From NCBI GenBank assembly GCA_000004985.1, contig GG738853.1: a stretch of DNA of 64,000 nt. One strand, 5' to 3'. Shown here piece after piece: positions 18,372 through 43,641 of this stretch. The position numbers and the translations under genes are program-made. Source of the DNA: Naegleria gruberi. Its lineage: Eukaryota. Below the pieces are notes generated by a model. It was not told where the DNA came from and ran no database searches. It saw only the letters and a list, made by a program, of their open reading frames with translations. Every line of letters begins with the position of its first letter. Positions within the stretch are counted from its first letter, which is position 1.

Positions 18372-21300
18372 ATGACCCAACAACACTTCAGCAGTATTCA
18401 TCATTTCTTCACTTTGTTTCTTCTGCTCGTGATTATTCTTTCCACTACTACTAATATTACTTTCGTTTCCGGTCAAGCTGTTTACACTAGTTCTGTTATC
18501 GGTGGAACATTGAACGAAACAAGAGCCATCCATGCCAAAATTATTATCTTTGACAATTATGTTGGTCGTCAATTGGCTATCTCTGCCAATGGTGATATGT
18601 ATACAACTTTGGGTAGAGGAACTGTTCGTAAAATTACTTCTGATGGATTATTTGTTCCATCGGTTGCTGGAATTGAGACCAGTTATGGATTTAGTGGTGA
18701 TGGTGGGTTGGCAATTCATGCACAACTGTCATATTCGCTGGGTATATCTGTTAATCCAATGAATGGAGATGTGTACATATGTGACATAAACAATCATAGA
18801 ATTAGAAAGGTGTCGTCTGATGGTGTTATTTCTACCATCGCTGGAACTGGTAGAACAACTTTAAATCCCATCTCTCCAAATACGTACCGTCAAGAAGGAG
18901 GTTACAATGGTGATGGATTGGCAACCGCAACAGATCTTAATTATCCGAAATATGCTCAAGTTGACTCAAAGGGAGATGTCTATTTTGCTGATACATATAA
19001 TGGACTAATTAGAAAGGTTTCCAATGGATATATTACAACAATTGCAGGTTCAAAGCAAAATAGTACAGTTAATACATTTGGTATGGCCCTTAATACTACA
19101 TTTGGAGATTTGAAATCTTTTTCAATGAATTTGAATACTGGAGATTTGATGATTTATTCAAATAAGGGAATATTTAGAGTATTTTCAAACGGTACTGTTG
19201 TAGTAATACGAAACAGTTTGCTTATTTCCAATAATTATTTTGTTGACATTACATTCAAATCTGATACAGAAGTTCTTTTTGGATTGACCAATTCTATTAT
19301 TTCTTACAATTTAGTTACCAACACTTCCACTGTATTGGTAACAGTTATTTATTTATCAGGATTTACAATTTATAGAGATGAGATTTACATTACTCAATCT
19401 TCAAGAAATCTTGGACAAATCAAAAAGTTATCAATTATTGAAGGAAAAGTTAAAATTATACCAATTGCAGGAATTGAAGATGAAATGTTAGATCCATCCT
19501 ATTCCGGTCCTGTTCAAAATGTTTCTCTTCTCAATGCTAATAGAATTACAGTTAGTTCCTCAAATGAAGATGTGTATTTTAGTGAAACATATTTTAACAT
19601 TGTAAGAAGGATATCATTAAGAACAGGAATTATCTCAACAATGACTGGAACTGGTGTCTGTGGTTACATGTCAGATGAAGATGTTGCAACACAAGCTAAA
19701 TTGTGCAATCCAGTTGGATTAGCAATCAATGATTTGAATGAATTATTCATTGCAAATTCTAATTATCCTGCAATTGTCATGGTAAACAACAGTAGAATTG
19801 TTCCAATTTGTGGAAATGGAGAGTATGGTAGGTCTGTAGATGGTATTTTAGCAGTAGATTCCAAGCTGGTCAATCCTACTGAAATTTCCTTAAATCCCTT
19901 AACAGGTGAACTTTATATTTTGGATGATTACAAGGGAGCTGTAAGGAAAATATTCAAAAATGGAACAATTACTAGCGTAATTACAAAAAATTCAGGTTCT
20001 AGTGAATCTATTGACTATATTGCAGTCAACCCAAAGAGTGGTGAATTTTATTTTCTTTCCAATTCAATACTTTACAAAATGACAACCAAAGGAAGAATAG
20101 CTGTTGCAGGATCAGGTACATCATATGAAGATGGTGTTTTGGCAAAGAATTCTAAATTCAATTCTCCAAAATCAATCGCTTTCAATCCAGTAACGAATGA
20201 CATTCTAGTTACAAGTGACAATTCTATTCGAATCATATTAAGCAATGGAACAATTACAACTTTGAAATATACCAATACTGATCCATTTCCACTTTCTTCT
20301 TTAGAAGGTATTGCTGTTAGCTCAAGTGGTGATATCTATATAGTAGATGCAGGGAATTATGCTATTAGAAAGTTGACACAATGTCCAAATGGATGTTTTT
20401 ATGGACAGTGCAAAACTCCAAATATTTGCACTTGTGATAATGATCATTATGGAATTGATTGTTCGAATAGAATTGATTGGGAATCAAGAACTGCTGTCAT
20501 TATTGCACCAATTCTAGTTATATTACTTATGGGTATTATGATTATTGTAATTGTATTAATTATTTTGATTTATTATTTTAGAAAATCTATTTCAGTTAAA
20601 ATCCAACAAGTTTATGATAATTTAAAACCAAAACAAACAAATATTGAATTGAATCAATCATTGTTGGATTATCAACAACCACAATTGTTTAAAACTAATA
20701 ACATTTCAATAGAGGAAGGATTAATGAATGAAAATGATGATAGTGACGATCCTGTTAATAGATATGAGATTTTGGAAAGAATAGGAAGAGGAGGATTTGG
20801 TTCTGGTAAGTTTATTGGAAATATTTTTATTCGAATCTTTTCCTTATTAGTTTATAAAGTTAAATATATTCAAGATGGTTCGATTAGAGCCCTTAAAACA
20901 CTCAAATATGCTAACATTGAAGAGTTGAATTTAGCAATGAAAGAAGGAACCCAACTAATGAATTTATCACATCCAACCATTTTACATGTGAATGACATTT
21001 TTGTGGGTAAAAATAATTTGATATACATTGATATGGAGTATTATGAACAGGGAGATTTATGTTCTTTAATTTCAAAATCAAATGAACCTTGTAAGGAAGC
21101 AATCATTCTTCAAATTATGAATCAAATTTGTTCAGCTCTTCATTATGTTCACACTCAATTGAAATCCATTCACAGAGATGTTAAACCAAATAATATATTT
21201 ATCAAATCAGTCCATGATAATTCAATTCAGGTTATTTTAGCTGATTTTGGAATGGCTAAACAAAATCAAGGATCTTCAAATAACTCATATGCAGGCACTC

Positions 21301-32006: not shown

Positions 32007-35000
32007 ATGTTCATTCCCTTCCTTCTTCAATTCTTTCTGTGTTGGTTTGTTGTGTGGTGTGTTCAGACTTTTCTCCCGCCACCCGACAAGACTCCAAACA
32101 ACACTTCCTCTACTGTAAATAATAATTATCAACAACACAAAGAAAACAACACGAAGGAATTACATAGAAATGATGAAGGAAAGTTATTGTTTTTGTGTGA
32201 GTTGAGAGAGACGAGGGAGGCTTTGCAAAAGGATTTGGAGGAATTAATTAATACTAATAATAATAATATTCATCATGATGATGATGATGACGATAATTTA
32301 GTAATACAAAAAGAAGAGGATAATGTAGAATTAATATCTAAATTATCAAATAGTGATGAGAAGGAAATATTAATGGAATGTAAAGAAGAATTCGGATTGG
32401 AGACAATTAGTAATGTAATTCAAGACGATCATCATTCTAGTCTTCAAAATACTACTACTGAAGACGAAGAAAAACTTGCCGAATTTATTCAGGCCATCAT
32501 TCATGCTCATGACAGCAATAGACACCTACGAAACCAATATCATTCCATTGAATTGATCGGACAAGTGTGTAGGAATTATTTGGAAAGGAAGGAACACGAT
32601 CAAGAAAGAAACAGTCTCACCAATTTACAATCATTGATTAAAAGAAGATTTAATCAACAGGTTATGAAGAGTGATTTGGAAAAACTAAACTTAGTGACGG
32701 GTTTTTTGCATTCCAAGCAGATACAGTATCGTATTGCTGAGGAGATTGTCATGTTGAGAATGATTCAATCAGTCATTAGAGGAAATTCACAATATTGTGA
32801 TTTCAAGAACCAAGTTAATTGTACTGTTATGGTGCAAAGTCGCTGGAAGTCTGCATATTTGAGAAGGGAGTTTGATGAGATGAAAGAAACTTGTCAAACA
32901 GTTCAGAGTTTAACAAGAGGAAGAACTCTAAGAGCTCATTTCACACAATTTGTACAAAATGCTAGTTTTATTCAAGGTATTATCAGAAAATATCAAACTA
33001 ACAAGCTTGTCAAGGATAATTTGGCAATTATTGAAGTAATTCAATCTTGTATGATTGGTAGAAATGCAGTGAATTCTTTTGTAAACTCAAAAACTTGTAT
33101 TGAGGCTATTCAAGCATTTTTAATTGGAAAATTAGAAAGAATCAGAACTAAAGAATTGGAACATGAGAAATGTAAAGTGGATTGCACATCCACATTACAA
33201 GCCACAATGAGAGGAAATTTAGTGAAGAGAGAAAAGGAGTTTCAATTATCAGCTGCTGAATGCATTCAAGCAACTATTGTAGGTGCCTTAGAGAGAAAGT
33301 TACTTCATCAAGCTTTAACAGAGCAATCATTCTTAACCGATGTTACTTTAATGCAAAGTTTAATTAGAGGAAAAATCGAACAAGATGCAATTGAAAAATG
33401 TTGGAATTTAGTAATATCACTGCAGAGTTCTTTAAGAGGTTACAAGGAAATACAACAATTCGCAACCTCCTTGCAGTCTACGGAGATTATACAGTCTCTG
33501 GTTAGAGGGGCTTGTGAGAGGAGAAAATACTCAACTGCTGTTCAAAATATTGACACGTTGCAAACCTTTTTCAAAGCTCAAATAATCAGGAGCGAATTAT
33601 CCCAATACCAGAATTCTTCTCTTTTACTAGGAGCTTTCTTTGAGAAACATTCAGCCAAAAGGAAATTCAGAGAAGAGAAGCAATCATTGACAAATATTCA
33701 AGCGATATTGAAAGGACATCTTTCTAGAGAGAACTATGCAAGCTCGATATGCAGTGTAATAACTCTTCAAGTTAATCTCAGATCAGCCCTTACAGCCAGA
33801 GAGGTCAGCAAAGAAATGGACGAAATAACCACAATTCAGGCATTTCAAAGAGGTAGTATCTGCAGAAGAGAAGCATCCTCTAGTTTGGCATCAGTTTACT
33901 ACTTGGGAGGATCAATTATTGGAAAAATTGAACGTTCTACCTTTTTGAAATGTTTATCCTCGGTTTATGATATTCAAGCTTCAATAATTGGCTCTATTAA
34001 AAGAAAGAGATTGAAACATATATACGCTCTAGTAGAAAATATCTTAGCTCTAAGAGAAAGAAAGATTGAAGAAGAGCTTTTGCAAAGCAGTATTCAAAAA
34101 ATTACTATTCTCCAATCTATTGTTAGAAGAAACAATGTCCTTACACCTAACGTTGCATTAACAATACAATCGAATGTCAAGGGATATCTTATCAGAAGAG
34201 AAAAACATGAGGCAACGGAGAACATTAAGACTCTATCAGGCTTTCTTCAATCATCTCAATCAAGAAAGGTCCATCAAAGCAAATTGACACAAATCATTCA
34301 ATTGCAAGCAATTATTCGTGGAAATTTATCTAAAAAGTATAGAGATCAAAGGAAATCTGATCTATTATGTTTACAGGGCTTAATAAGAGGTTATTTGTGG
34401 AGAAATGAATCCTATTTGTATATTCCTAATACTAGCTTGGCAGTTGCTCCAATTTCTGTCACTGAAACCATCAAGAGAATATTTGAAGATGAAATCACAG
34501 AGGATTCATCAGATAGCAGTCCTACTGAAGTTATTCCTCCAACCAGTAGAAGAGTTCCATCGTTTGATGCAGTAACAGGAGGAAGATCTAAACTTTCCCA
34601 ACTTATTAAGGACAAAGTTACAAAGTCACCAGTTCTTGATCTTTCAAATATGAATATCGAATCTCTTCCACCAATAGGAACAGACTGTTATCACATAACG
34701 GATTTGAATCTCTCCAAAAATATGTTAGTAACCTTACCAGAGTGGTTCTGTGACAAGTTTCCGAACCTTAAAAGGTTAAATTTGAGTGGAAACAGATTTT
34801 TCGATACTAACAAGTTACTTTCAGAAAATTTATCACCAATTTCTCAAACTTTAACCTTCCTTGATTTGAGCAAGAATAGATTAGAGTACTTTGAATTGCA
34901 TTACATTGATGAAAATGATAACGTTATGACCACAAATTTCCCAAACCTAACTAGTTTGAATTTGAGTTATAACCAACTTTTGAATGTTTCCAGTGAAATG

Positions 35001-38000
35001 TTTGAGCTCGTCTCTTTAAACAAACTTGAAAATCTAGATCTCTCACATAACCAATTGCTTACTTTTCCTACTTTGAAATCTTCTGATCTATTAAAGAGAT
35101 GGAAGGATTTCAAGGTTATTAATTTGGAACACAATTCTTTCCTCCAATCTGAAATTGGTAAGATATTTTACATGTTCAAAAAGCGTCCAGACTTGTTGAA
35201 ACAATTGAAAGGTCAGCTCTATAAGCGAGGAGCTGCCAAGGAGAGTGAATCAAAGCAAGTAATGGATGATTTGGAAATTAATGCAGAGATTGGCGCTCTA
35301 ATGGAGGAGGAAACTCAAACGGAAATGACAGAAATGGCTTATCATGATCAATTCAAATCCAACCTCACCTCACTAGGAAGTATAAGAACTATCAACACTA
35401 ATAGTGACTATGATTCAGAAGATGATGAATTGATGACTGATAGATCTTTCTACAGCTCTACATCTAATTTATCTTCTGGAGGAATTAGTCCTAGATTTAG
35501 TTCTCCAGCTCTTCCAAGAAAGAACAGAGCTAATTCAGCATCTCCATTCTTGTTAGGTCAAACTCCAAAACATAGCAATAATACAGAAAGTACAGAAGGT
35601 TCACCAAGAACTGATCTGGAAAAAGATACCCCAGAACTAGATTCTCCAAAGACACCAAGATTAGAACTTTTAGGACAACCAAAGCCAATATCAATCAATG
35701 TTTTGACTCCAATATCAGGTCAGGCCAAATATAGCTTTATTCAAGATATTCCAACAGTGCAATCAACAAACACACCAACTACTTTCACTCCTCCTGATTA
35801 CGAAACTAAAACTGTAAATATTCCAAAGCTCAATTTGAACTCAGCTCCATCACCTAATACTCCAAACAATCAATTAACTTTGAATGCTGACAATTTCCTT
35901 TCCGCTCGTTCTGCGTCTTCTGATAATATGAGTACACCTAATTCTTCATTGGCAAGTCCTGTTGTTGAATCTGAAAATTTGATCTTTATTCTCAATACTG
36001 AAGCTCTCAAAGACTCTTTCAAAGATTTCTGCGAAAAGGAACACTCTGGAGAGTCTATCGAATTTTATGATGCTGTTTCTTCATTCAAGAAACTCTCTAA
36101 CCCAGTCGAAGTTAGAGATCTTGCCTGTAATATTTATGATTTATTCATAAATCCAATAGGAAAACACGCCCTTAATATAAATAAGAAACAAATAGATAAG
36201 GTAAAATTGGATCTATTCAAAGAGGATGGAACACTCACAGAAGTGGTTTCAACTGGAACTTTTGATTCTTTATTATATTATGTAAAAATGAATTTGATGG
36301 ATCCTCTGAAAAGATACAAGGCAACAGAGGAATTTAAAAAGTTGGATGAATTTGTCAAGATGCCACCTGTGGATATTCCACTACCAAGACCAAAGTGGGG
36401 CACAGCAAGACATCCACTTTTGAAGGTTGGAGAATCTAAAAAACAATTCAGAAGAAAGAAAATTCCATACCTTTCAACTCCAAAACCTTCCACAACCAAC
36501 AGTAATAACAGTACTAGTGAGGACAGAACACCTACTATTCAAGGAAGTATTTCTCCAATCCCAGAGAGAAAGAGTATCAATATCAAACAGATGAAGAATA
36601 GAATTAACAACCTTATGGAAATTTTACACTCCGAGAGAAAGTACCTCTCGTTTCTCATAGATTTATGGGAAATGTATTACATGCCTCTCGTGGATAACAA
36701 ATATTTGAAAGGAACTGAACAACCTGTTTCTAAAAAGAGAAAATCCACTTCTGAGCCACCAAGCACAAGCGAAGATTCGACTCTCAAAAGAAAAATCTCG
36801 TTCATTGATAAGATTTTCAACAAGCAAAAGAGTTCTTCCTCATTAAAGGATGAAGATAAGAGATTGGTCGGTAAGAAGGATGCTCTCGAGATGTTCCCAG
36901 CCAATTTATTTACCATTATCACTTTCAACAAGAGCTTTTTAGTTTCATTGGAGGAGAGATTTGCACTATACAGCGAGGAGCAAGAAGGTTCAATTATTCC
37001 AAGAATGTACAACATGATGATTGGAGATATATTCGAAAAGAGTATTCCATACTTTAGAATTTATGAAAATTATTTGGAAACTTATGAAAGTTGTATGAAC
37101 AAAATTAGACAAGTCAGAGCTCAAAACAAGGAATTTGACACCTGGATTAAGAAACGTAAATCTCACCCAAGAAGTAGAAATTTGGAAATTAATTCACTAC
37201 TTGTGGTTCCTGTTCAAAGAGTTGTCAGATACAAACTCTTAATTGAAAATCTTATTGAAACAACTGAGGAAGATCATCCAGACCATATTCACTTACTTAA
37301 AGCTCTGGATATGATTGTGGATGTTGCCAACCAACAAAACAATAATATTCGTCTTACTAATAACCGTGTCAAGGTGAGAATGTTGACACAACTCTTTGAT
37401 TTTTATGAACAATTGGGAGCTTCCTCAATTTCTTCAGGAGGTGTTGTAGAAGATAATTTATTAATTAGAGAAGGAGATGTAGAGATTCAAATAATGAAGG
37501 ATGAAAAATCCAGTCCAAAACGATCCTACAAGGTTCAGAGAGCATACCTCTTTACTAATGTCATTATATTTGTGGAAAAAACCAAACAAGTTGACAAACA
37601 AATTACACAAGAAGAAAATACCAAATCATCAGAAAGCTCACAAGGTGAAACAAATACCAATATGGAGTTGAGAAAATCCTCATCGTTCGTTATGAGAAAA
37701 TTAAAGAAGAGTGGATCTGAAAATAACCTTACCAACTCACCACCTATGCACAAGTCAATCAAGGTAGAGAAGAAGCATTTCCGTTTGGAGGATGCCTTTG
37801 TTTCAGGAGGATCAGCACTTACCATTGAAATTCGTTTCACAACACCATCCATTCACTCCCTCAAGTCATATTCAACCAATGATTTGACATCTGTTGGAAA
37901 TTTTAATATTGGATCAACAATCAACTCGGCACGTAGTGCAAAATCATCAAACAGTACAGAAGATATGCCAGATTCTGCCAGAAAACGATCTTTCAGTCTT

Positions 38001-38195
38001 TTTGGGAAATTGACAGGCAAACACAAGAAACAAACCAATATTTCCAAAGATCAAACAGTTGCAGTATTGAGTTTTGATTCCTCTGAATTGAAGAATGAAT
38101 GGCTTTTTGATTTGGAATCATCTATCAAGGAAGCCAAACAACGAGCAGCCAACAAGGCAAGCAAACTCCAAATTTCCTCATCCTTTACAAATTAA
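32007..38195 (+). CDS. Giant signalling protein, 2062 aa: IQ-motif array, leucine-rich repeats, RGS domain, DH (RhoGEF) domain, PH-like region
   Basis: Seen: aa ~170-780 hold about 20 IQ-like repeats (IQxxxRGxxxR, e.g. IQSVIRGNSQ, IQGIIRKYQ, LQATMRGNLVKR). aa ~880-1040 are LRRs (LDLSNMNIESLPP.., LNLSGNRF, LDLSKNRL, LNLSYNQL, LDLSHNQL). aa ~1330-1450 are an RGS domain (SGESIEFYDAVSSFKK, ACNIYDLFINP). aa ~1530-1750 are a DH domain (RINNLMEILHSERKYLSFL, NSLLVVPVQRVVRYKLLIENL). A C-terminal PH-like region follows. There is one continuous ORF. Confidence 0.7.
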   Translation: MFIPFLLQFFLCWFVVWCVQTFLPPPDKTPNNTSSTVNNNYQQHKENNTKELHRNDEGKLLFLCELRETREALQKDLEELINTNNNNIHHDDDDDDNLVIQKEEDNVELISKLSNSDEKEILMECKEEFGLETISNVIQDDHHSSLQNTTTEDEEKLAEFIQAIIHAHDSNRHLRNQYHSIELIGQVCRNYLERKEHDQERNSLTNLQSLIKRRFNQQVMKSDLEKLNLVTGFLHSKQIQYRIAEEIVMLRMIQSVIRGNSQYCDFKNQVNCTVMVQSRWKSAYLRREFDEMKETCQTVQSLTRGRTLRAHFTQFVQNASFIQGIIRKYQTNKLVKDNLAIIEVIQSCMIGRNAVNSFVNSKTCIEAIQAFLIGKLERIRTKELEHEKCKVDCTSTLQATMRGNLVKREKEFQLSAAECIQATIVGALERKLLHQALTEQSFLTDVTLMQSLIRGKIEQDAIEKCWNLVISLQSSLRGYKEIQQFATSLQSTEIIQSLVRGACERRKYSTAVQNIDTLQTFFKAQIIRSELSQYQNSSLLLGAFFEKHSAKRKFREEKQSLTNIQAILKGHLSRENYASSICSVITLQVNLRSALTAREVSKEMDEITTIQAFQRGSICRREASSSLASVYYLGGSIIGKIERSTFLKCLSSVYDIQASIIGSIKRKRLKHIYALVENILALRERKIEEELLQSSIQKITILQSIVRRNNVLTPNVALTIQSNVKGYLIRREKHEATENIKTLSGFLQSSQSRKVHQSKLTQIIQLQAIIRGNLSKKYRDQRKSDLLCLQGLIRGYLWRNESYLYIPNTSLAVAPISVTETIKRIFEDEITEDSSDSSPTEVIPPTSRRVPSFDAVTGGRSKLSQLIKDKVTKSPVLDLSNMNIESLPPIGTDCYHITDLNLSKNMLVTLPEWFCDKFPNLKRLNLSGNRFFDTNKLLSENLSPISQTLTFLDLSKNRLEYFELHYIDENDNVMTTNFPNLTSLNLSYNQLLNVSSEMFELVSLNKLENLDLSHNQLLTFPTLKSSDLLKRWKDFKVINLEHNSFLQSEIGKIFYMFKKRPDLLKQLKGQLYKRGAAKESESKQVMDDLEINAEIGALMEEETQTEMTEMAYHDQFKSNLTSLGSIRTINTNSDYDSEDDELMTDRSFYSSTSNLSSGGISPRFSSPALPRKNRANSASPFLLGQTPKHSNNTESTEGSPRTDLEKDTPELDSPKTPRLELLGQPKPISINVLTPISGQAKYSFIQDIPTVQSTNTPTTFTPPDYETKTVNIPKLNLNSAPSPNTPNNQLTLNADNFLSARSASSDNMSTPNSSLASPVVESENLIFILNTEALKDSFKDFCEKEHSGESIEFYDAVSSFKKLSNPVEVRDLACNIYDLFINPIGKHALNINKKQIDKVKLDLFKEDGTLTEVVSTGTFDSLLYYVKMNLMDPLKRYKATEEFKKLDEFVKMPPVDIPLPRPKWGTARHPLLKVGESKKQFRRKKIPYLSTPKPSTTNSNNSTSEDRTPTIQGSISPIPERKSINIKQMKNRINNLMEILHSERKYLSFLIDLWEMYYMPLVDNKYLKGTEQPVSKKRKSTSEPPSTSEDSTLKRKISFIDKIFNKQKSSSSLKDEDKRLVGKKDALEMFPANLFTIITFNKSFLVSLEERFALYSEEQEGSIIPRMYNMMIGDIFEKSIPYFRIYENYLETYESCMNKIRQVRAQNKEFDTWIKKRKSHPRSRNLEINSLLVVPVQRVVRYKLLIENLIETTEEDHPDHIHLLKALDMIVDVANQQNNNIRLTNNRVKVRMLTQLFDFYEQLGASSISSGGVVEDNLLIREGDVEIQIMKDEKSSPKRSYKVQRAYLFTNVIIFVEKTKQVDKQITQEENTKSSESSQGETNTNMELRKSSSFVMRKLKKSGSENNLTNSPPMHKSIKVEKKHFRLEDAFVSGGSALTIEIRFTTPSIHSLKSYSTNDLTSVGNFNIGSTINSARSAKSSNSTEDMPDSARKRSFSLFGKLTGKHKKQTNISKDQTVAVLSFDSSELKNEWLFDLESSIKEAKQRAANKASKLQISSSFTN

Positions 38196-38620: not shown

Positions 38621-39934
38621 ATGATGGGAAGGTTGAGCTATTCTAAGGGCGTACTCTTGATGGCTCTTTTGGTCATTCTCGCTGTGATTGCATGCAGTGA
38701 TAATGTCCATGCTGCTCCAGCTACACCAGCTGATCCAACAAGGAAACAAACAAAGCCAGTTGCAGCTTCCCCAGCCACACCAGCTGCTAAACAAACCAAT
38801 TCATCCATTACGGAAATTTTCACATGTTTTGGAATCAAATCTGATGATAAGAAGGTTTGTAATGGTTTAGGAACTTGTATTGGAAAAGATAAATGTCGTT
38901 GCATGCCTGGAAAAGCTGGTCCAGAATGTAAACACAGTGGCGGTTTACCTCCAAAACCACAACCAAAGATTATCAATTCTCTATCCAAGAATAACTCTAC
39001 AAAGCCAGTAATTAAACCAGCCTCTATTACAGATCCATCCACTAAGAAAAAGGAAATTTTCACATGTTTTGGAATCAAATCTGATGAAAAGAAGGTCTGT
39101 AATGGTAAAGGAACTTGTATTGGAACAGATAAATGTCGCTGCATGCCTGGAAAAGCTGGTCCAGAATGTAAACACAGTGGTGGTTTACCTCCACCAAAAC
39201 CAAAACCCCAACCAAAGATTAAACCAGCCTCTGTTACAGATCCATCCACCAAGAGTAAGGAAATTTTCACATGCTTTGGTATTAAGTCTGACGAAAAGAA
39301 GGTTTGTAATGGTTTAGGAACTTGTATTGGTAAAGATAAATGTCGCTGCATGCCTGGTAAAGCTGGTCCAGAATGTAAGCACAGTGGTGGTTTACCTCCA
39401 AACCCAAAACCACAACCAAAACCACAACCAAAGATTATCAATTCTCCATCCAAGAATAACTCTACAAAGCCAGTAATTAAGCCAGCATCTATTACAGATC
39501 CTTCCACCATTGGTTTACCAATTCCACCAAAACCACAACCAAAACCTTCTCAACAAAAGCGGAAAGAATCTTTAATCAATAACACCATTAAACCTAAAGA
39601 AGTTGAACCAAAGAAGGATATCAAAATAGATGAAAATCCTGAAAAGAAAGAAGACGAAAAGAATAATGAAAAAACAAAAGAGAAGAGTTCACAAAACAAG
39701 AAACTCAAGAGATGTGGAAAGAAAAAGTGCCAGAAGAGAAAGAATAAGAAGGAAACAAATCAAACAACCACCGAAAAGCAAAAGCTTGACACTATTATTA
39801 ATATGATTAGAAAATTGATTGCTTCAAAGAGAAAGCCAAGTCCACAACCAAATCAAACACCTGTTCAATCTGCTAATGGTCAAAAGTCATCTGTAAACAT
39901 TTCCAATATTATTAATGTTGAAAACGAGCATTGA
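38621..39934 (+). CDS. Secreted protein with three tandem EGF-like Cys modules, a Pro/Thr-rich N-terminus and a Lys/Glu-rich C-terminal tail
   Basis: Seen: signal peptide MMGRLSYSKGVLLMALLVILAVIACSDNVHA. The six-Cys module EIFTCFGIKSD(D/E)KKVCNG(L/K)GTCIG(K/T)DKCRCMPGKAGPECKHSGGLPP.KPQPK occurs three times (EGF-like CxC..G..G..C ending). The tail is basic (KKKCQKRKNKKE). Confidence 0.6.
   Translation: MMGRLSYSKGVLLMALLVILAVIACSDNVHAAPATPADPTRKQTKPVAASPATPAAKQTNSSITEIFTCFGIKSDDKKVCNGLGTCIGKDKCRCMPGKAGPECKHSGGLPPKPQPKIINSLSKNNSTKPVIKPASITDPSTKKKEIFTCFGIKSDEKKVCNGKGTCIGTDKCRCMPGKAGPECKHSGGLPPPKPKPQPKIKPASVTDPSTKSKEIFTCFGIKSDEKKVCNGLGTCIGKDKCRCMPGKAGPECKHSGGLPPNPKPQPKPQPKIINSPSKNNSTKPVIKPASITDPSTIGLPIPPKPQPKPSQQKRKESLINNTIKPKEVEPKKDIKIDENPEKKEDEKNNEKTKEKSSQNKKLKRCGKKKCQKRKNKKETNQTTTEKQKLDTIINMIRKLIASKRKPSPQPNQTPVQSANGQKSSVNISNIINVENEH
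38813..39520 (+). repeat. Three near-identical tandem DNA repeats (~207-250 bp units starting 38813, 39053, 39260) encoding the EGF-like modules
   Basis: Seen: the units are over 90% identical at nucleotide level (gaaattttcacatgttttggaatcaaatctgatga.aagaaggt.tgtaatggt..aggaacttgtattgg...gataaatgtcg.tgcatgcctgg.aaagctggtccagaatgtaa.cacagtgg.ggtttacctcc). The repeat also creates a spurious long antisense ORF (38638..39510). Confidence 0.75.
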
Positions 39935-40098: not shown

Positions 40099-40908
40099 AT
40101 GCAACACGGCCAAGAGCATCCAGTTTCTCTCTCACTTGTTGATTTTATTTTCTTTCGTGATGAAGATCACTCCACACCATCATTGGAACAATTTCAAACT
40201 CTGATCCGTAATTTCAAGAGGAAAATTAGTGAACCTAGAAGTAGATTTTCCACTAAACAAATCGAAAATTTTGATGATTTACCAATTAAGGAAGAATTAT
40301 TGAGAGGAATTTATGGAAATGGATTGGAAAAAATGTCAGAAATTCAAAAGAAATGCATCTTGCCAATTATTTCATCAGAACCGCCTGTAGATGTACTAGT
40401 TGTGTCTGGAACTGGAACTGGAAAGACATCAAGCTATTGTATTTCAATTATTCAAAGATTGGATACTAGTCGAAAGTTGACTAAACTTTGTCCACAAGCA
40501 ATAGTAATTGTTTCATCGAGGGAATTAGCTTATGGAGTTTCCAGAGTAGTTGAAAATTATGGGAAATATCTGAATGTGAAATCTAAACCTCTAGTTCTCT
40601 CACCAACCAAAGAAATAGATGACAATTGTCATGTGCTTGTAGGAACAGCAGGAATCACGTTGGCTTATCTCAAAAATAGAAAGCTGGATGTTAATCAGTT
40701 GAAAATTCTAATATTTGATGATATAGATGATTCAATATCTGGAAATCAAATTTCATATGACAATATTTGTGACATTTTCAAAAAACTCAAGAAAATTAAT
40801 TTACAAATTTGCATCTATTGTTGTGGAGTGATATCAGAAAAAACACAAGAATTGATTGAAAAAGAGCTTAGAGACCCAGTGATTATTAAACAGGATATTA
40901 GAAAGTGA
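40099..40908 (+). CDS. Truncated, degenerate eIF4A-like DEAD-box domain-1 protein (269 aa, no helicase domain 2)
   Basis: Seen: the Q-motif region FDDLPIKEELLRGIYGNGLEKMSEIQKKCILPII closely matches eIF4A [30 protein letters not shown]. Walker A is VSGTGTGKTSS. Motif Ia is SSRELA (PTRELA) and Ib is GTAGI (GTPGR). Motif II DEAD is IFDDIDD and motif III SAT is CCG. The ORF stops where domain 1 ends (RDPVIIKQ). No downstream exon encodes a domain 2. Confidence 0.55.
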   Translation: MQHGQEHPVSLSLVDFIFFRDEDHSTPSLEQFQTLIRNFKRKISEPRSRFSTKQIENFDDLPIKEELLRGIYGNGLEKMSEIQKKCILPIISSEPPVDVLVVSGTGTGKTSSYCISIIQRLDTSRKLTKLCPQAIVIVSSRELAYGVSRVVENYGKYLNVKSKPLVLSPTKEIDDNCHVLVGTAGITLAYLKNRKLDVNQLKILIFDDIDDSISGNQISYDNICDIFKKLKKINLQICIYCCGVISEKTQELIEKELRDPVIIKQDIRK

Positions 40909-41060
40909 ATATTTATTGGAAAGTGATTATTGGAATCTCGAATGCTTAATGATTCTATTGTAGATCCAATGGAAGCAACAAAAGACATGACTCGGTTATT
41001 TATGGTGTTTCTTTTTTTAGATAAACATAGCAAGACTAGCTGGTGGAGTTGATTTAAAGT

Positions 41061-41084
41061 GACCATCCCAGCGCTGGGATGGTC
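41061..41084. repeat. Perfect 24-bp GC-rich palindrome GACCATCCCAGC|GCTGGGATGGTC
   Basis: Seen directly: a 12+12 perfect inverted repeat with no spacer, 75% GC, inside an otherwise AT-rich intergenic stretch between the eIF4A-like gene and the next gene. Confidence 0.9.
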
Positions 41085-41205
41085 GATTGCCGCCAAAAAT
41101 CCCGTTGCCACTGTAGTTCATTGTAGTGTTGAACACTGATCCAGTCCTAATTATAGATTTCTTTCAAATTCTGGAAAGTTTGAGAAAACAGTTGTTAACA
41201 AAATA

Positions 41206-43071
41206 ATGCCACAACTGGCTGTAATAAATGTCACAGATCTGCCACCATTTCATCAAATACCATCATATAAATTCCAAAATACTGACTATTATCGTATAAA
41301 TGATGTTATTAATTCATACTTTGTTAAAAAATCAAATCATTCACCTTCCAAAATATTAGGAACTGTGTTTTGGGGAAGGAGCCATGTAGTTCCCTCCAAG
41401 GAGGCTGGAAAAGAAATCGGAATGGCAATTGATAAAGGACCAGAAACTATAATTGACCTAGCTGCTGTATTTTACTTGATCATGAATGTGACAAGTAGTA
41501 ATAAGGAAACTCAAAGTGTTGTTTTCAATCATATCATCTCCACTCTCAACCCTCCAATTAATAACAATGCTACTCTTCAAGAAATTCCTTCTGAACTTGG
41601 TTCCTGTGATTCGTATTTTGGATTAGAGGAGTATTTTGATGATGAAGAGGATGAAGATGAATCCGATTCCAACTCTTCGAATAAACCTCAATCGACTCAA
41701 AATAACGATTCAATTAATCAAGAAGATATTATGTTAGATGAGGGAAGGGTTAATTCAGATTCCTTACCACCAAATAATCAACGAAATGAAGAATTTCTCC
41801 CCGAATATGTTGTTGTTGAGCAAAGCAATACCCCAATGTCAAATAATTTTATTAACCGTCTGGAATATGATTCGTATTCATCTGCTATTTCTCAAATAAC
41901 AGAAATAATCAATACTCAAAATTTTAGTCACTTCGATCAATTAAGCAATCCATTTTCAAACGTGTGCAGTTACTTTGGAAATAATTTTTCAGTTTCACAA
42001 TTCAATTCAAATAGCCTCTCTCAATTTAGTCAACCAATATTTTCTCAAATACCAACAAATTACACAGAAACATCATCAAGGGTTCCAGTTGACCAAATCA
42101 TCGAAAAAGAGATTGAAAAAGTTATCATCAATGGATTTTCATGTTCACACTGCAATAACCCTGCATCAGTGTACTTTTCAGGGAAGTATTCAGGTATAGA
42201 TAGTCATGATTGTTTTTCAAAATATTCAAGAAACAGATGTAGAATGGATCTAGATTGCTTTGAGAAACTCCTTAAGGCACAAAATCATGATTTGTATCTT
42301 TGGTTTGAATGTTTGTTAAAAACCAGAGAAGGAAGAAAAAAAGTATTTGATATTTTAAATAATGAAGACAGTGAACGAATTAAGGTGCTATTTAAGGAGA
42401 GAAAGCAAACACGTAATGTGGATGATGTGATGTATTGGAAAGATAATAATTTAGTTTCTTTCAAAATTGTGAATAATTTAAGAAAAGAATGTACGCTTAG
42501 TGATGAATTACCACCAACAAAAGATATGAAGACACGAAAGAAAATTATTGATGAAGAAGTGGAAAAAATCTTCAAAATTATTGCTCCCTCAAACGGCATT
42601 GTTGGTTTTATTGCTGATCTACATGTGTCAGTTGAGCAAATCTTGAAATTATATAGATGTCTTGGCGGGAAACAATTACCAAAAACAGTTTATTTCAAAC
42701 TGTGTGTAGATGGACGAGAGATTAATGGCAAGAAACAAATTGCAATTGCCCTTGTTCCTCTTAATCTACGAGATATATTTCCAACTCAAGCAGTCTCATC
42801 TGTTTTCTATATTGGGCTATTTCTTGGATCAGAAACTAAAAGTTCATTACCTGAAACAGTTGGTTCTTTATCGGATAGTCTAAAATTCATCAGCTCAACA
42901 ACATTCGAAAATTCAAACATTAATTTTTTGAAATTCAAATATTTGAAAATGAAGAATTTATTAGATACTATTTATCCAAACAAAACCACAGTCAGAAGTA
43001 GAAGAAGCAATCTTCTTTTGGATCATAGTGGTCATGTATACATGGTAGACATCTGTGTGAGTATTCAATGA
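41206..43071 (+). CDS. Hypothetical protein with an acidic tract and a Cys-containing C-terminal domain
   Basis: Seen: a 621-aa ATG ORF with a DDEEDEDESDSNSS acidic stretch and a low-complexity Ser/Asn/Gln middle. The C-terminal region carries CSHCNNP..C..C. No confident family assignment. Confidence 0.4.
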   Translation: MPQLAVINVTDLPPFHQIPSYKFQNTDYYRINDVINSYFVKKSNHSPSKILGTVFWGRSHVVPSKEAGKEIGMAIDKGPETIIDLAAVFYLIMNVTSSNKETQSVVFNHIISTLNPPINNNATLQEIPSELGSCDSYFGLEEYFDDEEDEDESDSNSSNKPQSTQNNDSINQEDIMLDEGRVNSDSLPPNNQRNEEFLPEYVVVEQSNTPMSNNFINRLEYDSYSSAISQITEIINTQNFSHFDQLSNPFSNVCSYFGNNFSVSQFNSNSLSQFSQPIFSQIPTNYTETSSRVPVDQIIEKEIEKVIINGFSCSHCNNPASVYFSGKYSGIDSHDCFSKYSRNRCRMDLDCFEKLLKAQNHDLYLWFECLLKTREGRKKVFDILNNEDSERIKVLFKERKQTRNVDDVMYWKDNNLVSFKIVNNLRKECTLSDELPPTKDMKTRKKIIDEEVEKIFKIIAPSNGIVGFIADLHVSVEQILKLYRCLGGKQLPKTVYFKLCVDGREINGKKQIAIALVPLNLRDIFPTQAVSSVFYIGLFLGSETKSSLPETVGSLSDSLKFISSTTFENSNINFLKFKYLKMKNLLDTIYPNKTTVRSRRSNLLLDHSGHVYMVDICVSIQ

Positions 43072-43641
43072 CACAAAGAGCTTGTCAGCAACACATCGAT
43101 ACTCTGCTTCTCTGAAATATTCTGGAATAATTCCCCCTAACCCTTCGAATTGACTTGCAAGCTCTGACACGTCAACTATGGTGTAATATTTAGTCCAGGA
43201 TGGCTTGGAAAAACTTGGAAAATGAGGATAGTTAAATTCGTACACGATATGAGAAATGTGACCATCTTGTTCTCTAGTTGAGTATGGTGTGTATTCTTCT
43301 TTTCTAATGTACAAATGGGGTGGCATGGTGGCTGACATATAGGTATCGAATACATCTTCAGCACATTCTCCAATAGCAGTTCTTTCAAGTGCCTTTCCAT
43401 GAAGTGGAATGTTGTGGTCATCACAATAGCTTCGGATCTTTCTTTCCATTTTCTGTGCAGCCTCTGTCCTGGATTTGGTGGAGAAGAATGGATGGTTGGT
43501 AGTGAGTGGAGAAACATATGTGGTGACAGGTACCTCATCTGTATACACGAATGGATCAAGTGGATGAGCACGAGGTTTGTAGGTGTTCTTTGCTTTGTTG
43601 GCAGTCTCCTTCTTGGTGCTTCTTGATGTGTGTTTAGGCAT
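42961..43641 (-). CDS. Hypothetical protein, strongly codon-biased (likely highly expressed)
   Basis: Seen: a 226-aa ATG ORF with a basic N-terminus (MPKHTSRSTKKETANKAKNTYKPRAHP). Its C-ending codon bias resembles the actin gene. Its last ~110 nt overlap the 3' end of the convergent 41206..43071 ORF. No recognised motif. Confidence 0.4.
   Translation of the reverse strand: MPKHTSRSTKKETANKAKNTYKPRAHPLDPFVYTDEVPVTTYVSPLTTNHPFFSTKSRTEAAQKMERKIRSYCDDHNIPLHGKALERTAIGECAEDVFDTYMSATMPPHLYIRKEEYTPYSTREQDGHISHIVYEFNYPHFPSFSKPSWTKYYTIVDVSELASQFEGLGGIIPEYFREAEYRCVADKLFVSLNTHTDVYHVYMTTMIQKKIASSTSDCGFVWINSI

Follow-up and report, generated by a model that had tools for sequence, protein, structure and literature searches.

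A eukaryotic eIF4A paralogue with a single RecA-like domain in Naegleria gruberi, probably a non-catalytic half-helicase, and its kin in Willaertia

The analysis concerns a stretch of 64,000 nucleotides from Naegleria gruberi NEG-M, which as a whole is called the window below. At 40099-40908 on the plus strand it contains an intronless open reading frame of 269 aa followed by TGA, which we refer to as the half-helicase. The ATG lies in an A-rich start context similar to that of the neighbouring genes, and an in-frame TGA is located 9 nt 5' of it. Two upstream neighbours are exact matches to annotated proteins, EFC47749.1 (RhoGEF, 32007-38195) and EFC47750.1 (EGF-repeat protein, 38621-39934), and on the other side the next ORF begins 297 bp 3' of the gene. 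The sole public annotation at the locus itself is EFC47751, a partial model of 74 aa, and the full 269-aa product was not found in a collection of 15 billion proteins. The features of the locus are collected in Table 1.

Table 1. Features of the half-helicase locus, in positions of the window
Feature	Position	Strand	Evidence
Complete intronless CDS, domain-1-only eIF4A paralogue	40099..40908	+	ORF list, upstream stop, codon score, Pfam DEAD E 6e-20
N-terminal extension, aa 1-53, low-confidence/flexible, with conserved element LSLVDFIFFRDED at 40129-40167	40099..40257	+	AF2 pLDDT 39-72
EFC47751.1 / XP_002680495.1, 'predicted protein, partial', 74 aa, equal to ORF aa 53-126	40255..40476	+	100% identity (P0138)
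RecA-like domain 1, eIF4A type, aa 54-263	40258..40887	+	PDB sequence match, AF2, Foldseek
Q motif GLEKMSEIQKKCI, with Q conserved and M in place of the canonical P	40321..40359	+	alignments, motif table
SSEPPVDV, heterolobosean eIF4A-specific insertion of three residues	40372..40395	+	alignments
Motif I / Walker A SGTGTGKT, with GKT intact and SGT in place of AQS	40405..40428	+	alignments
Motif Ia SSRELA (canonical PTRELA)	40513..40530	+	alignments
Motif Ib TAGIT (canonical TPGRV), GG loop before it deleted	40645..40659	+	alignments
Motif II DDIDDS (canonical DEADEM), catalytic Glu lost	40717..40734	+	alignments
Motif III CCG (canonical SAT)	40819..40827	+	alignments
C-terminal end DPVIIKQDIRK + TGA, domain 1/domain 2 linker	40873..40908	+	aligned to eIF4A DPIRILVKKEELTLEG
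Intergenic spacer without domain-2 coding capacity	40909..41205	.	stops in 3/3 forward frames, no tblastn match

The flanks of the gene show some further features. A perfect GC-rich palindrome of 24 bp, GACCATCCCAGCGCTGGGATGGTC, is located at 41061-41084, within the spacer that separates the half-helicase from the ORF downstream; it occurs as a single copy in the window, none of 100 shuffles gave such a palindrome, and it matches no Rfam family. Structured RNA was also considered in the flanks, where the sole match, to mir-31, reaches 19 bits, below the gathering score of 51, and is taken as chance. Further downstream, two long ORFs, 41206-43071 (+) and 42961-43641 (-), share 111 bp on opposite strands. 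Pfam gives no match for either, and their exact products are absent from the protein collection.

Several searches agree in placing the half-helicase with eIF4A. In Pfam it matches DEAD (PF00270) with 72 bits against a cutoff of 26, while the ORF has no match to Helicase_C (PF00271). Its best sequence match in the PDB is the DEAD domain of human eIF4A-I (E 1.4e-27, residues 54-263). A profile made from the ORF and a paralogue also ranks eIF4A-I (151 bits) above eIF4AIII, Dbp5 and DDX6, with 127 bits for yeast eIF4A, 117 for eIF4AIII and 102 for Dbp5. The AF2 model has a mean pLDDT of 86, with the core mostly above 90, and its best Foldseek matches are the eIF4A DEAD domains 5zbz, 2g9n and 3bor (TM 0.85-0.94 on the target); the enzyme fold is accordingly a predicted one, and it is predicted to be retained. 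Within the N-terminal extension a helix is predicted at 29-43. The protein is basic, with a pI of 8.3 compared with 5.9 for eIF4A domain 1.

The motifs of the DEAD-box helicases are preserved in part. The Q motif is recognizable (F58 ... GLEKMSEIQ, in which Q is kept and P is changed to M), and GxGKT is intact in the Walker A sequence, whose first residue is Ser instead of the Ala of AxxGxGKT. Motifs II and III, as they would be found in an active helicase, are replaced by DDID and CCG. The RNA-binding motifs are altered as well, with SSRELA for PTRELA in motif Ia, TAGI for TPGR in motif Ib and the GG deleted, and the motifs IV, V and VI of a second RecA domain are missing. Since motifs II, III, Ib and GG all deviate and domain 2 is lacking, the half-helicase falls outside the active DEAD-box helicases. 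Pseudoenzymes have been defined by sequence, structure and functional assay (PMC9539457); in the half-helicase the catalytic residues are gone and the homology is still evident, as expected of a pseudoenzyme at the sequence level.

The reading frame ends with ...DPVIIKQDIRK*, a few residues past the boundary between domain 1 and domain 2, and this end aligns to the linker DPIRILVKKEELTLEG of eIF4A. Six full-length eIF4A-family proteins and the eIF4A of Willaertia magna were compared by tblastn with both strands of the whole 64-kb window, the queries including eIF4A and FAL1, and no credible match for domain 2 was found. At the half-helicase locus only query residues about 10-238, which correspond to domain 1, aligned. 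One marginal 'domain 2' match at 20745-20801 (E 0.23) was rejected, because there the RIGRGGFG of a kinase glycine loop mimics the HRIGRxGR of motif VI. In addition, none of the three forward frames of the 297-bp spacer is free of stop codons. A preliminary description of this DNA had proposed an eIF4A-like frame restricted to domain 1, with strong similarity through the Q motif and Walker A and SSRELA, TAGI, DDID and CCG in place of the canonical motifs, which ends at the domain boundary and is followed by no domain-2 exon. The Pfam and PDB matches, the alignments and the search of the window bear out this picture.

We then present an overall view of the proteins that share this architecture. 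The closest protein to the half-helicase is EFC40029 of N. gruberi (P0001, NAEGRDRAFT_72190; 233 aa), with about 43-44% identity, and a second paralogue in the same species is EFC40005 (P0126, NAEGRDRAFT_72139; 214 aa). Both have the DEAD domain only, and both lie on one scaffold of 333,733 bp. EFC40005 and EFC47751 were found by an exhaustive profile search, which also brought up the two 235-aa W. magna proteins described next, while a word-indexed protein search missed EFC40005 and EFC47751. The truncated form was also sought in related species, and W. magna proves to have three domain-1-only loci, all of them intronless (P0136, P0271, P0300). Their genes are KAL9649299 and KAL9657223, of 235 aa each, and ABK040_007789, of 247 aa, and tblastn with full-length eIF4A detects no domain 2 within 6 kb on either side of any of the three. 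The two 235-aa genes lie on separate contigs (L002, JBEGDK010000096.1; L004, JBEGDK010000021.1), differ at 8 of 708 nt and share a neighbourhood of LARP4-like, PARP_regulatory, DEAD and U-box genes; they are probably haplotigs or homeologous copies rather than separate paralogues. As for the window copy itself, a protein search found no orthologue in another strain or species, where those of N. fowleri and N. lovaniensis might hide in 50% clusters, and no mention of these gene identifiers was found in the literature that was searched.

Metagenomes were scanned with the family profile, which retrieved ordinary two-domain eIF4A loci alone, at 29-41% identity; as a control, domain 2 adjoins domain 1 in 79 of the 80 metagenomic eIF4A-like loci fetched in this way. 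One metagenome contig (L001) encodes a 270-aa version of EFC40029 (P0295), about 97% identical to it and with the same stop position, and the L001 gene stood in for the genomic DNA of EFC40029. The N-terminal extension of P0295, VSLIDFRIILED, is homologous to aa 1-53 of the half-helicase, and the ATG at 40099 is thereby supported. A segmental duplication was considered and rejected, as nothing in the window corresponds to the gene lying upstream on L001.

Compared across the six members, the catalytic motifs turn out to be lost in different ways. Motif II reads DDID, DEFE, DRTG and, in three members, DQLD, so DEAD is lost in all, and SAT is likewise lost in all, with CCG, SQD, GD, SLQ (twice) and SGLN at motif III. 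The stop follows DP(I/V) by 3-12 residues in every member. EFC40029 has in addition lost the Q of the Q motif (Q to H) and the P-loop Gly (GTGKT to GTSKT), and the window copy alone has the GG-loop deletion and an insertion of two residues after motif II. The members share the fold and the hydrophobic core, together with the ELLRGIY helix and portions of motifs I and Ia, and the half-helicase is 31-44% identical to the others. Judged from these comparisons, the paralogues of N. gruberi and W. magna, all of them 'predicted' or 'hypothetical' proteins, constitute the actual family of the window gene, and the 'ATP-dependent RNA helicase' labels that paralogues bear are misleading.

An intact eIF4A, which the preliminary description had proposed to look for, is present elsewhere in N. 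gruberi. It is the 407-aa protein P0389 (XP_002676412), the single eIF4A listed in the Naegleria eIF4A literature (PMC5862402). This canonical protein and those of W. magna (P0301) and Acrasis kona (P0408) have an insertion of three residues, giving TTSEPPADV or TTSNPPADV, while the eIF4As of insects, fungi and others lack the SEPPxDV insertion. The insertion is found in all six domain-1-only proteins, as SSEPP(V/I/L)DV in Naegleria and as SSLPANV, SSPPANV and SNPPANV in Willaertia. This shared insertion indicates that the domain-1-only family descends from heterolobosean eIF4A itself. An origin from Dbp5/DDX19 was also considered, since 'EPPxN/D' looked Dbp5-like, and was ruled out by the profile scores (151 bits for eIF4A vs 102 for Dbp5) and by the presence of the insertion in canonical heterolobosean eIF4A; the likeness of the insertion to Dbp5/DDX19 is thus coincidental.

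In domain 1, the canonical eIF4As of N. gruberi and W. magna are 86% identical, and the half-helicase is 37% identical to the eIF4A of its own species. Among the domain-1-only proteins the identities are 36-44% within Naegleria and 31-35% between the genera, and to canonical heterolobosean eIF4A they are 36-39% for the Naegleria members and 43-50% for the Willaertia members. A neighbour-joining tree supports the domain-1-only clade of Naegleria with 99% and that of Willaertia with 100%, and the two are joined with 71%. A single ancestral truncation is favoured on this sequence evidence; long-branch attraction may have raised the 71% for the two together, in which case the truncation could have happened twice.

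The coding signal of the half-helicase is that of an ordinary gene. The codon log-odds are 0.28 bits/codon in frame, as against -0.57 and -0.76 off frame, and eighteen long ORFs of the window score 0.20-0.44 bits/codon; the N-terminal 53 codons by themselves have a coding score of 0.35. The GC3 of 0.23 is at the low end among the genes of the window. An open frame of 269 codons would arise at random, at this base composition, with a probability of about 9e-10. No stops or frameshifts are present in the 269 codons, and the indels relative to the paralogues are all in-frame, so the usual marks of a pseudogene are missing from the frame.

Neutral evolution, another mark of a pseudogene, is not observed either. 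The Nei-Gojobori method gives the W. magna homeologues, of whose 8 differences about 5 are synonymous (binomial p 0.009), a dN/dS of 0.16. The ratio rises to 0.35 in the comparison of P0136 with P0300 (dS 0.59) and to 0.46 in that of the window copy with L001, the last being an upper estimate because its dS of 1.1 is near saturation. The range of 0.16-0.46 describes the family as a whole, within which the window lineage is not isolated, and the values of 0.35-0.46 correspond to weak constraint. In relative-rate tests of Tajima with eIF4A as outgroup, the window copy and the paralogues show 33:30 and 26:29 unique changes, neither significant (p about 0.7). Therefore, the codon, dN/dS and rate results together point to a coding family under relaxed but real purifying selection, in which the window copy is not long dead.

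The same evidence bears on the possibility that the window copy is a non-functional relic, either a recently silenced member of the family or a truncated eIF4A duplicate, whose frame has not yet been broken. Such a relic would fit a public model which is merely a 74-aa partial fragment, the absence of the full product from the protein collection and of an orthologue among the strains and species searched, the low GC3, and the GG-loop deletion and two-residue insertion seen in this sole member. However, the copy has diverged to about 44% identity with its nearest paralogue without acquiring one stop or frameshift, in a frame far too long to be expected at random, and its relative rate equals that of both annotated paralogues. 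It uses codons as normal coding sequence does, even in the N-terminal extension, which is moreover conserved with P0295, and in Q and GKT it keeps more canonical residues than EFC40029 does. We hence consider a relic unlikely. The preliminary description had offered a decoy or regulatory paralogue and a decaying pseudogene side by side; the kin copies, the dN/dS below 1, the rate and the codon usage favour the paralogue and speak against the pseudogene.

Alternatively, the half-helicase might be one half of a split DEAD-box helicase, with a separate RecA2-only protein pairing in trans to rebuild the enzyme, and the Q motif and GKT of the window copy as well as the domain boundaries, cleanly preserved in all members, would fit this reading. 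Yet every member has lost SAT and has DDID, DEFE, DRTG or DQLD for DEAD; GG and Ib are eroded in the window copy, Q and the P-loop Gly are lost in EFC40029, and domain 2 is found neither in the 64 kb here nor within 6 kb of the three W. magna loci, which makes a split helicase very improbable. It can hardly be maintained either that faulty assembly or gene modelling has cut short a two-domain helicase of the normal kind, one or more 3' exons having been overlooked, being set apart by a long intron or having disappeared at an assembly break. The genes of N. gruberi average about 0.7 introns (PMC5862402), and the public model at the locus is partial, but no domain-2 similarity is seen at E<=10 on either strand of the entire window and the next gene follows after just 297 bp. 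The same stop position, furthermore, recurs on an independent metagenome contig of the EFC40029 type and at three independently assembled W. magna loci.

Taken from the sequence comparisons, the most probable reading is thus that of an intact gene for a heterolobosean eIF4A paralogue with a single RecA domain, catalytically inactive and most likely working by binding. As half-copies have been kept in both Naegleria and Willaertia, the product is probably a working non-enzyme protein and not the trace of a dead gene. The family to which it belongs is small and fast-evolving, N. gruberi having three of its genes and W. magna three loci, and is under moderate purifying selection.

With neither domain 2, and hence motifs IV-VI and the arginine fingers, nor the catalytic Glu, the half-helicase is presumably neither an ATPase nor a helicase; it would be expected to perform no ATP hydrolysis and no RNA clamping of the eIF4A style. 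Since the window copy keeps GKT and the Q motif, which recognizes adenine, it may still bind an adenine nucleotide. Nucleotide binding is not a requirement of the whole family, because EFC40029 has lost Q and the P-loop Gly. Binding would be the most economical function. We infer that the protein most likely acts by mimicking the N-terminal domain of eIF4A, be it as competitor, adaptor or scaffold. Such a mimic would occupy or titrate the partners of the eIF4A-NTD, namely MIF4G/MA3-type proteins (eIF4G, PDCD4-like factors) or RNA, and in this way it would modulate eIF4A-dependent steps. A decoy role of this kind is put forward as a hypothesis. No conserved 'new' active surface was identified, as the catalytic and RNA-binding motifs vary from member to member.

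It is of interest to compare the half-helicase with known systems. Its best match in sequence and fold is canonical eIF4A of the eIF4A-I/Tif1 type, specifically that of heteroloboseans. Both have SEPPxDV and the ELLRGIY helix, and of the helicase motifs the Q motif, GKT and, within motif Ia, REL are common to them. From canonical eIF4A it differs by the absence of RecA2, by the loss of DEAD, SAT, GG and TPGR and by the added N-terminal extension of 53 aa. Utp25/Def and the C-terminal cassette of Brr2 are similar in that a helicase fold with degenerate catalytic motifs has a presumed non-enzymatic role as scaffold, cofactor or regulator. However, Utp25 and the Brr2 cassette keep both RecA domains, whereas the half-helicase family has RecA1 alone, and unlike the ancient, conserved, single-copy pseudohelicases it is lineage-restricted, multi-copy and fast-evolving. 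Pseudohelicases have rarely been described, Utp25 being called only the second one proposed (PMC9539457), and the known ones have both RecA domains.

An eIF4A-type RecA1 that has no RecA2 to match it, and whose motifs are often degenerate, occurs also in Paramoeba atlantica (P0199), Stomoxys calcitrans (LOC106083760) and Calicophoron daubneyi (P0123). None of these proteins carries the SEPP insertion, and the tree places them apart from the Naegleria/Willaertia group, which shows that they are of independent origin, and the Paramoeba protein, unlike the half-helicase family, retains DExD and SAT. The Stomoxys protein (P0125, UniRef A0A1I8Q043) has 8 degenerate copies of eIF4A domain 1 and no domain 2, that of Calicophoron (CAL8078821.1) has 4 copies and one domain 2, and an eIF4A-15-like protein of Camellia sinensis (P0124) has 2 copies and one domain 2; these tandem proteins may be genuine, with true repeats, or may result from the fusion of gene models. 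Further stand-alone eIF4A-type domain-1 proteins are found in unrelated protists and metagenomes, namely P0199/P0292 of Paramoeba atlantica (an MMETSP transcript and an 18,990-bp contig), P0181, P0155 and P0210. That such unrelated proteins end at the same domain boundary suggests a repeated origin of the half-helicase architecture. On metagenome contigs of up to 10.9 kb there is in addition a full-length eIF4A-like protein of 390 aa (P0003), with DELD for DEAD, FSCC for SAT and an eroded domain 2, which may be a two-domain pseudo-eIF4A of a eukaryote.

What appears to be new here is that the window copy is no lone relic and has kin half-copies in N. gruberi and W. magna. For the annotation of N. 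gruberi, the partial model EFC47751 should give way to the 269-aa CDS. A wider possibility, which we regard as rather doubtful, is that heteroloboseans such as Naegleria and Willaertia keep a family of rapidly diversifying, stand-alone pseudoenzymes of the eIF4A-NTD, which would modulate translation initiation by competition for eIF4A partners of the eIF4G/PDCD4 type or act as host-pathogen decoys, with analogues of independent evolution that may exist in other protists such as Paramoeba and, in the form of tandem arrays, in the animals Stomoxys and Calicophoron. A decoy role over the translation machinery in host-pathogen conflict would account for the multi-copy, fast-evolving pattern, and these proteins, if this is true, would represent a new class of single-RecA 'half-helicase' regulators. 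More generally, a conserved, multi-copy family built from the RecA1 of eIF4A, with dead motifs, would be an example of a halved DEAD-box core persisting as an independent protein, and would offer a natural tool to find out which of the functions of eIF4A, such as the binding of partners and nucleotide, belong to its N-terminal domain.
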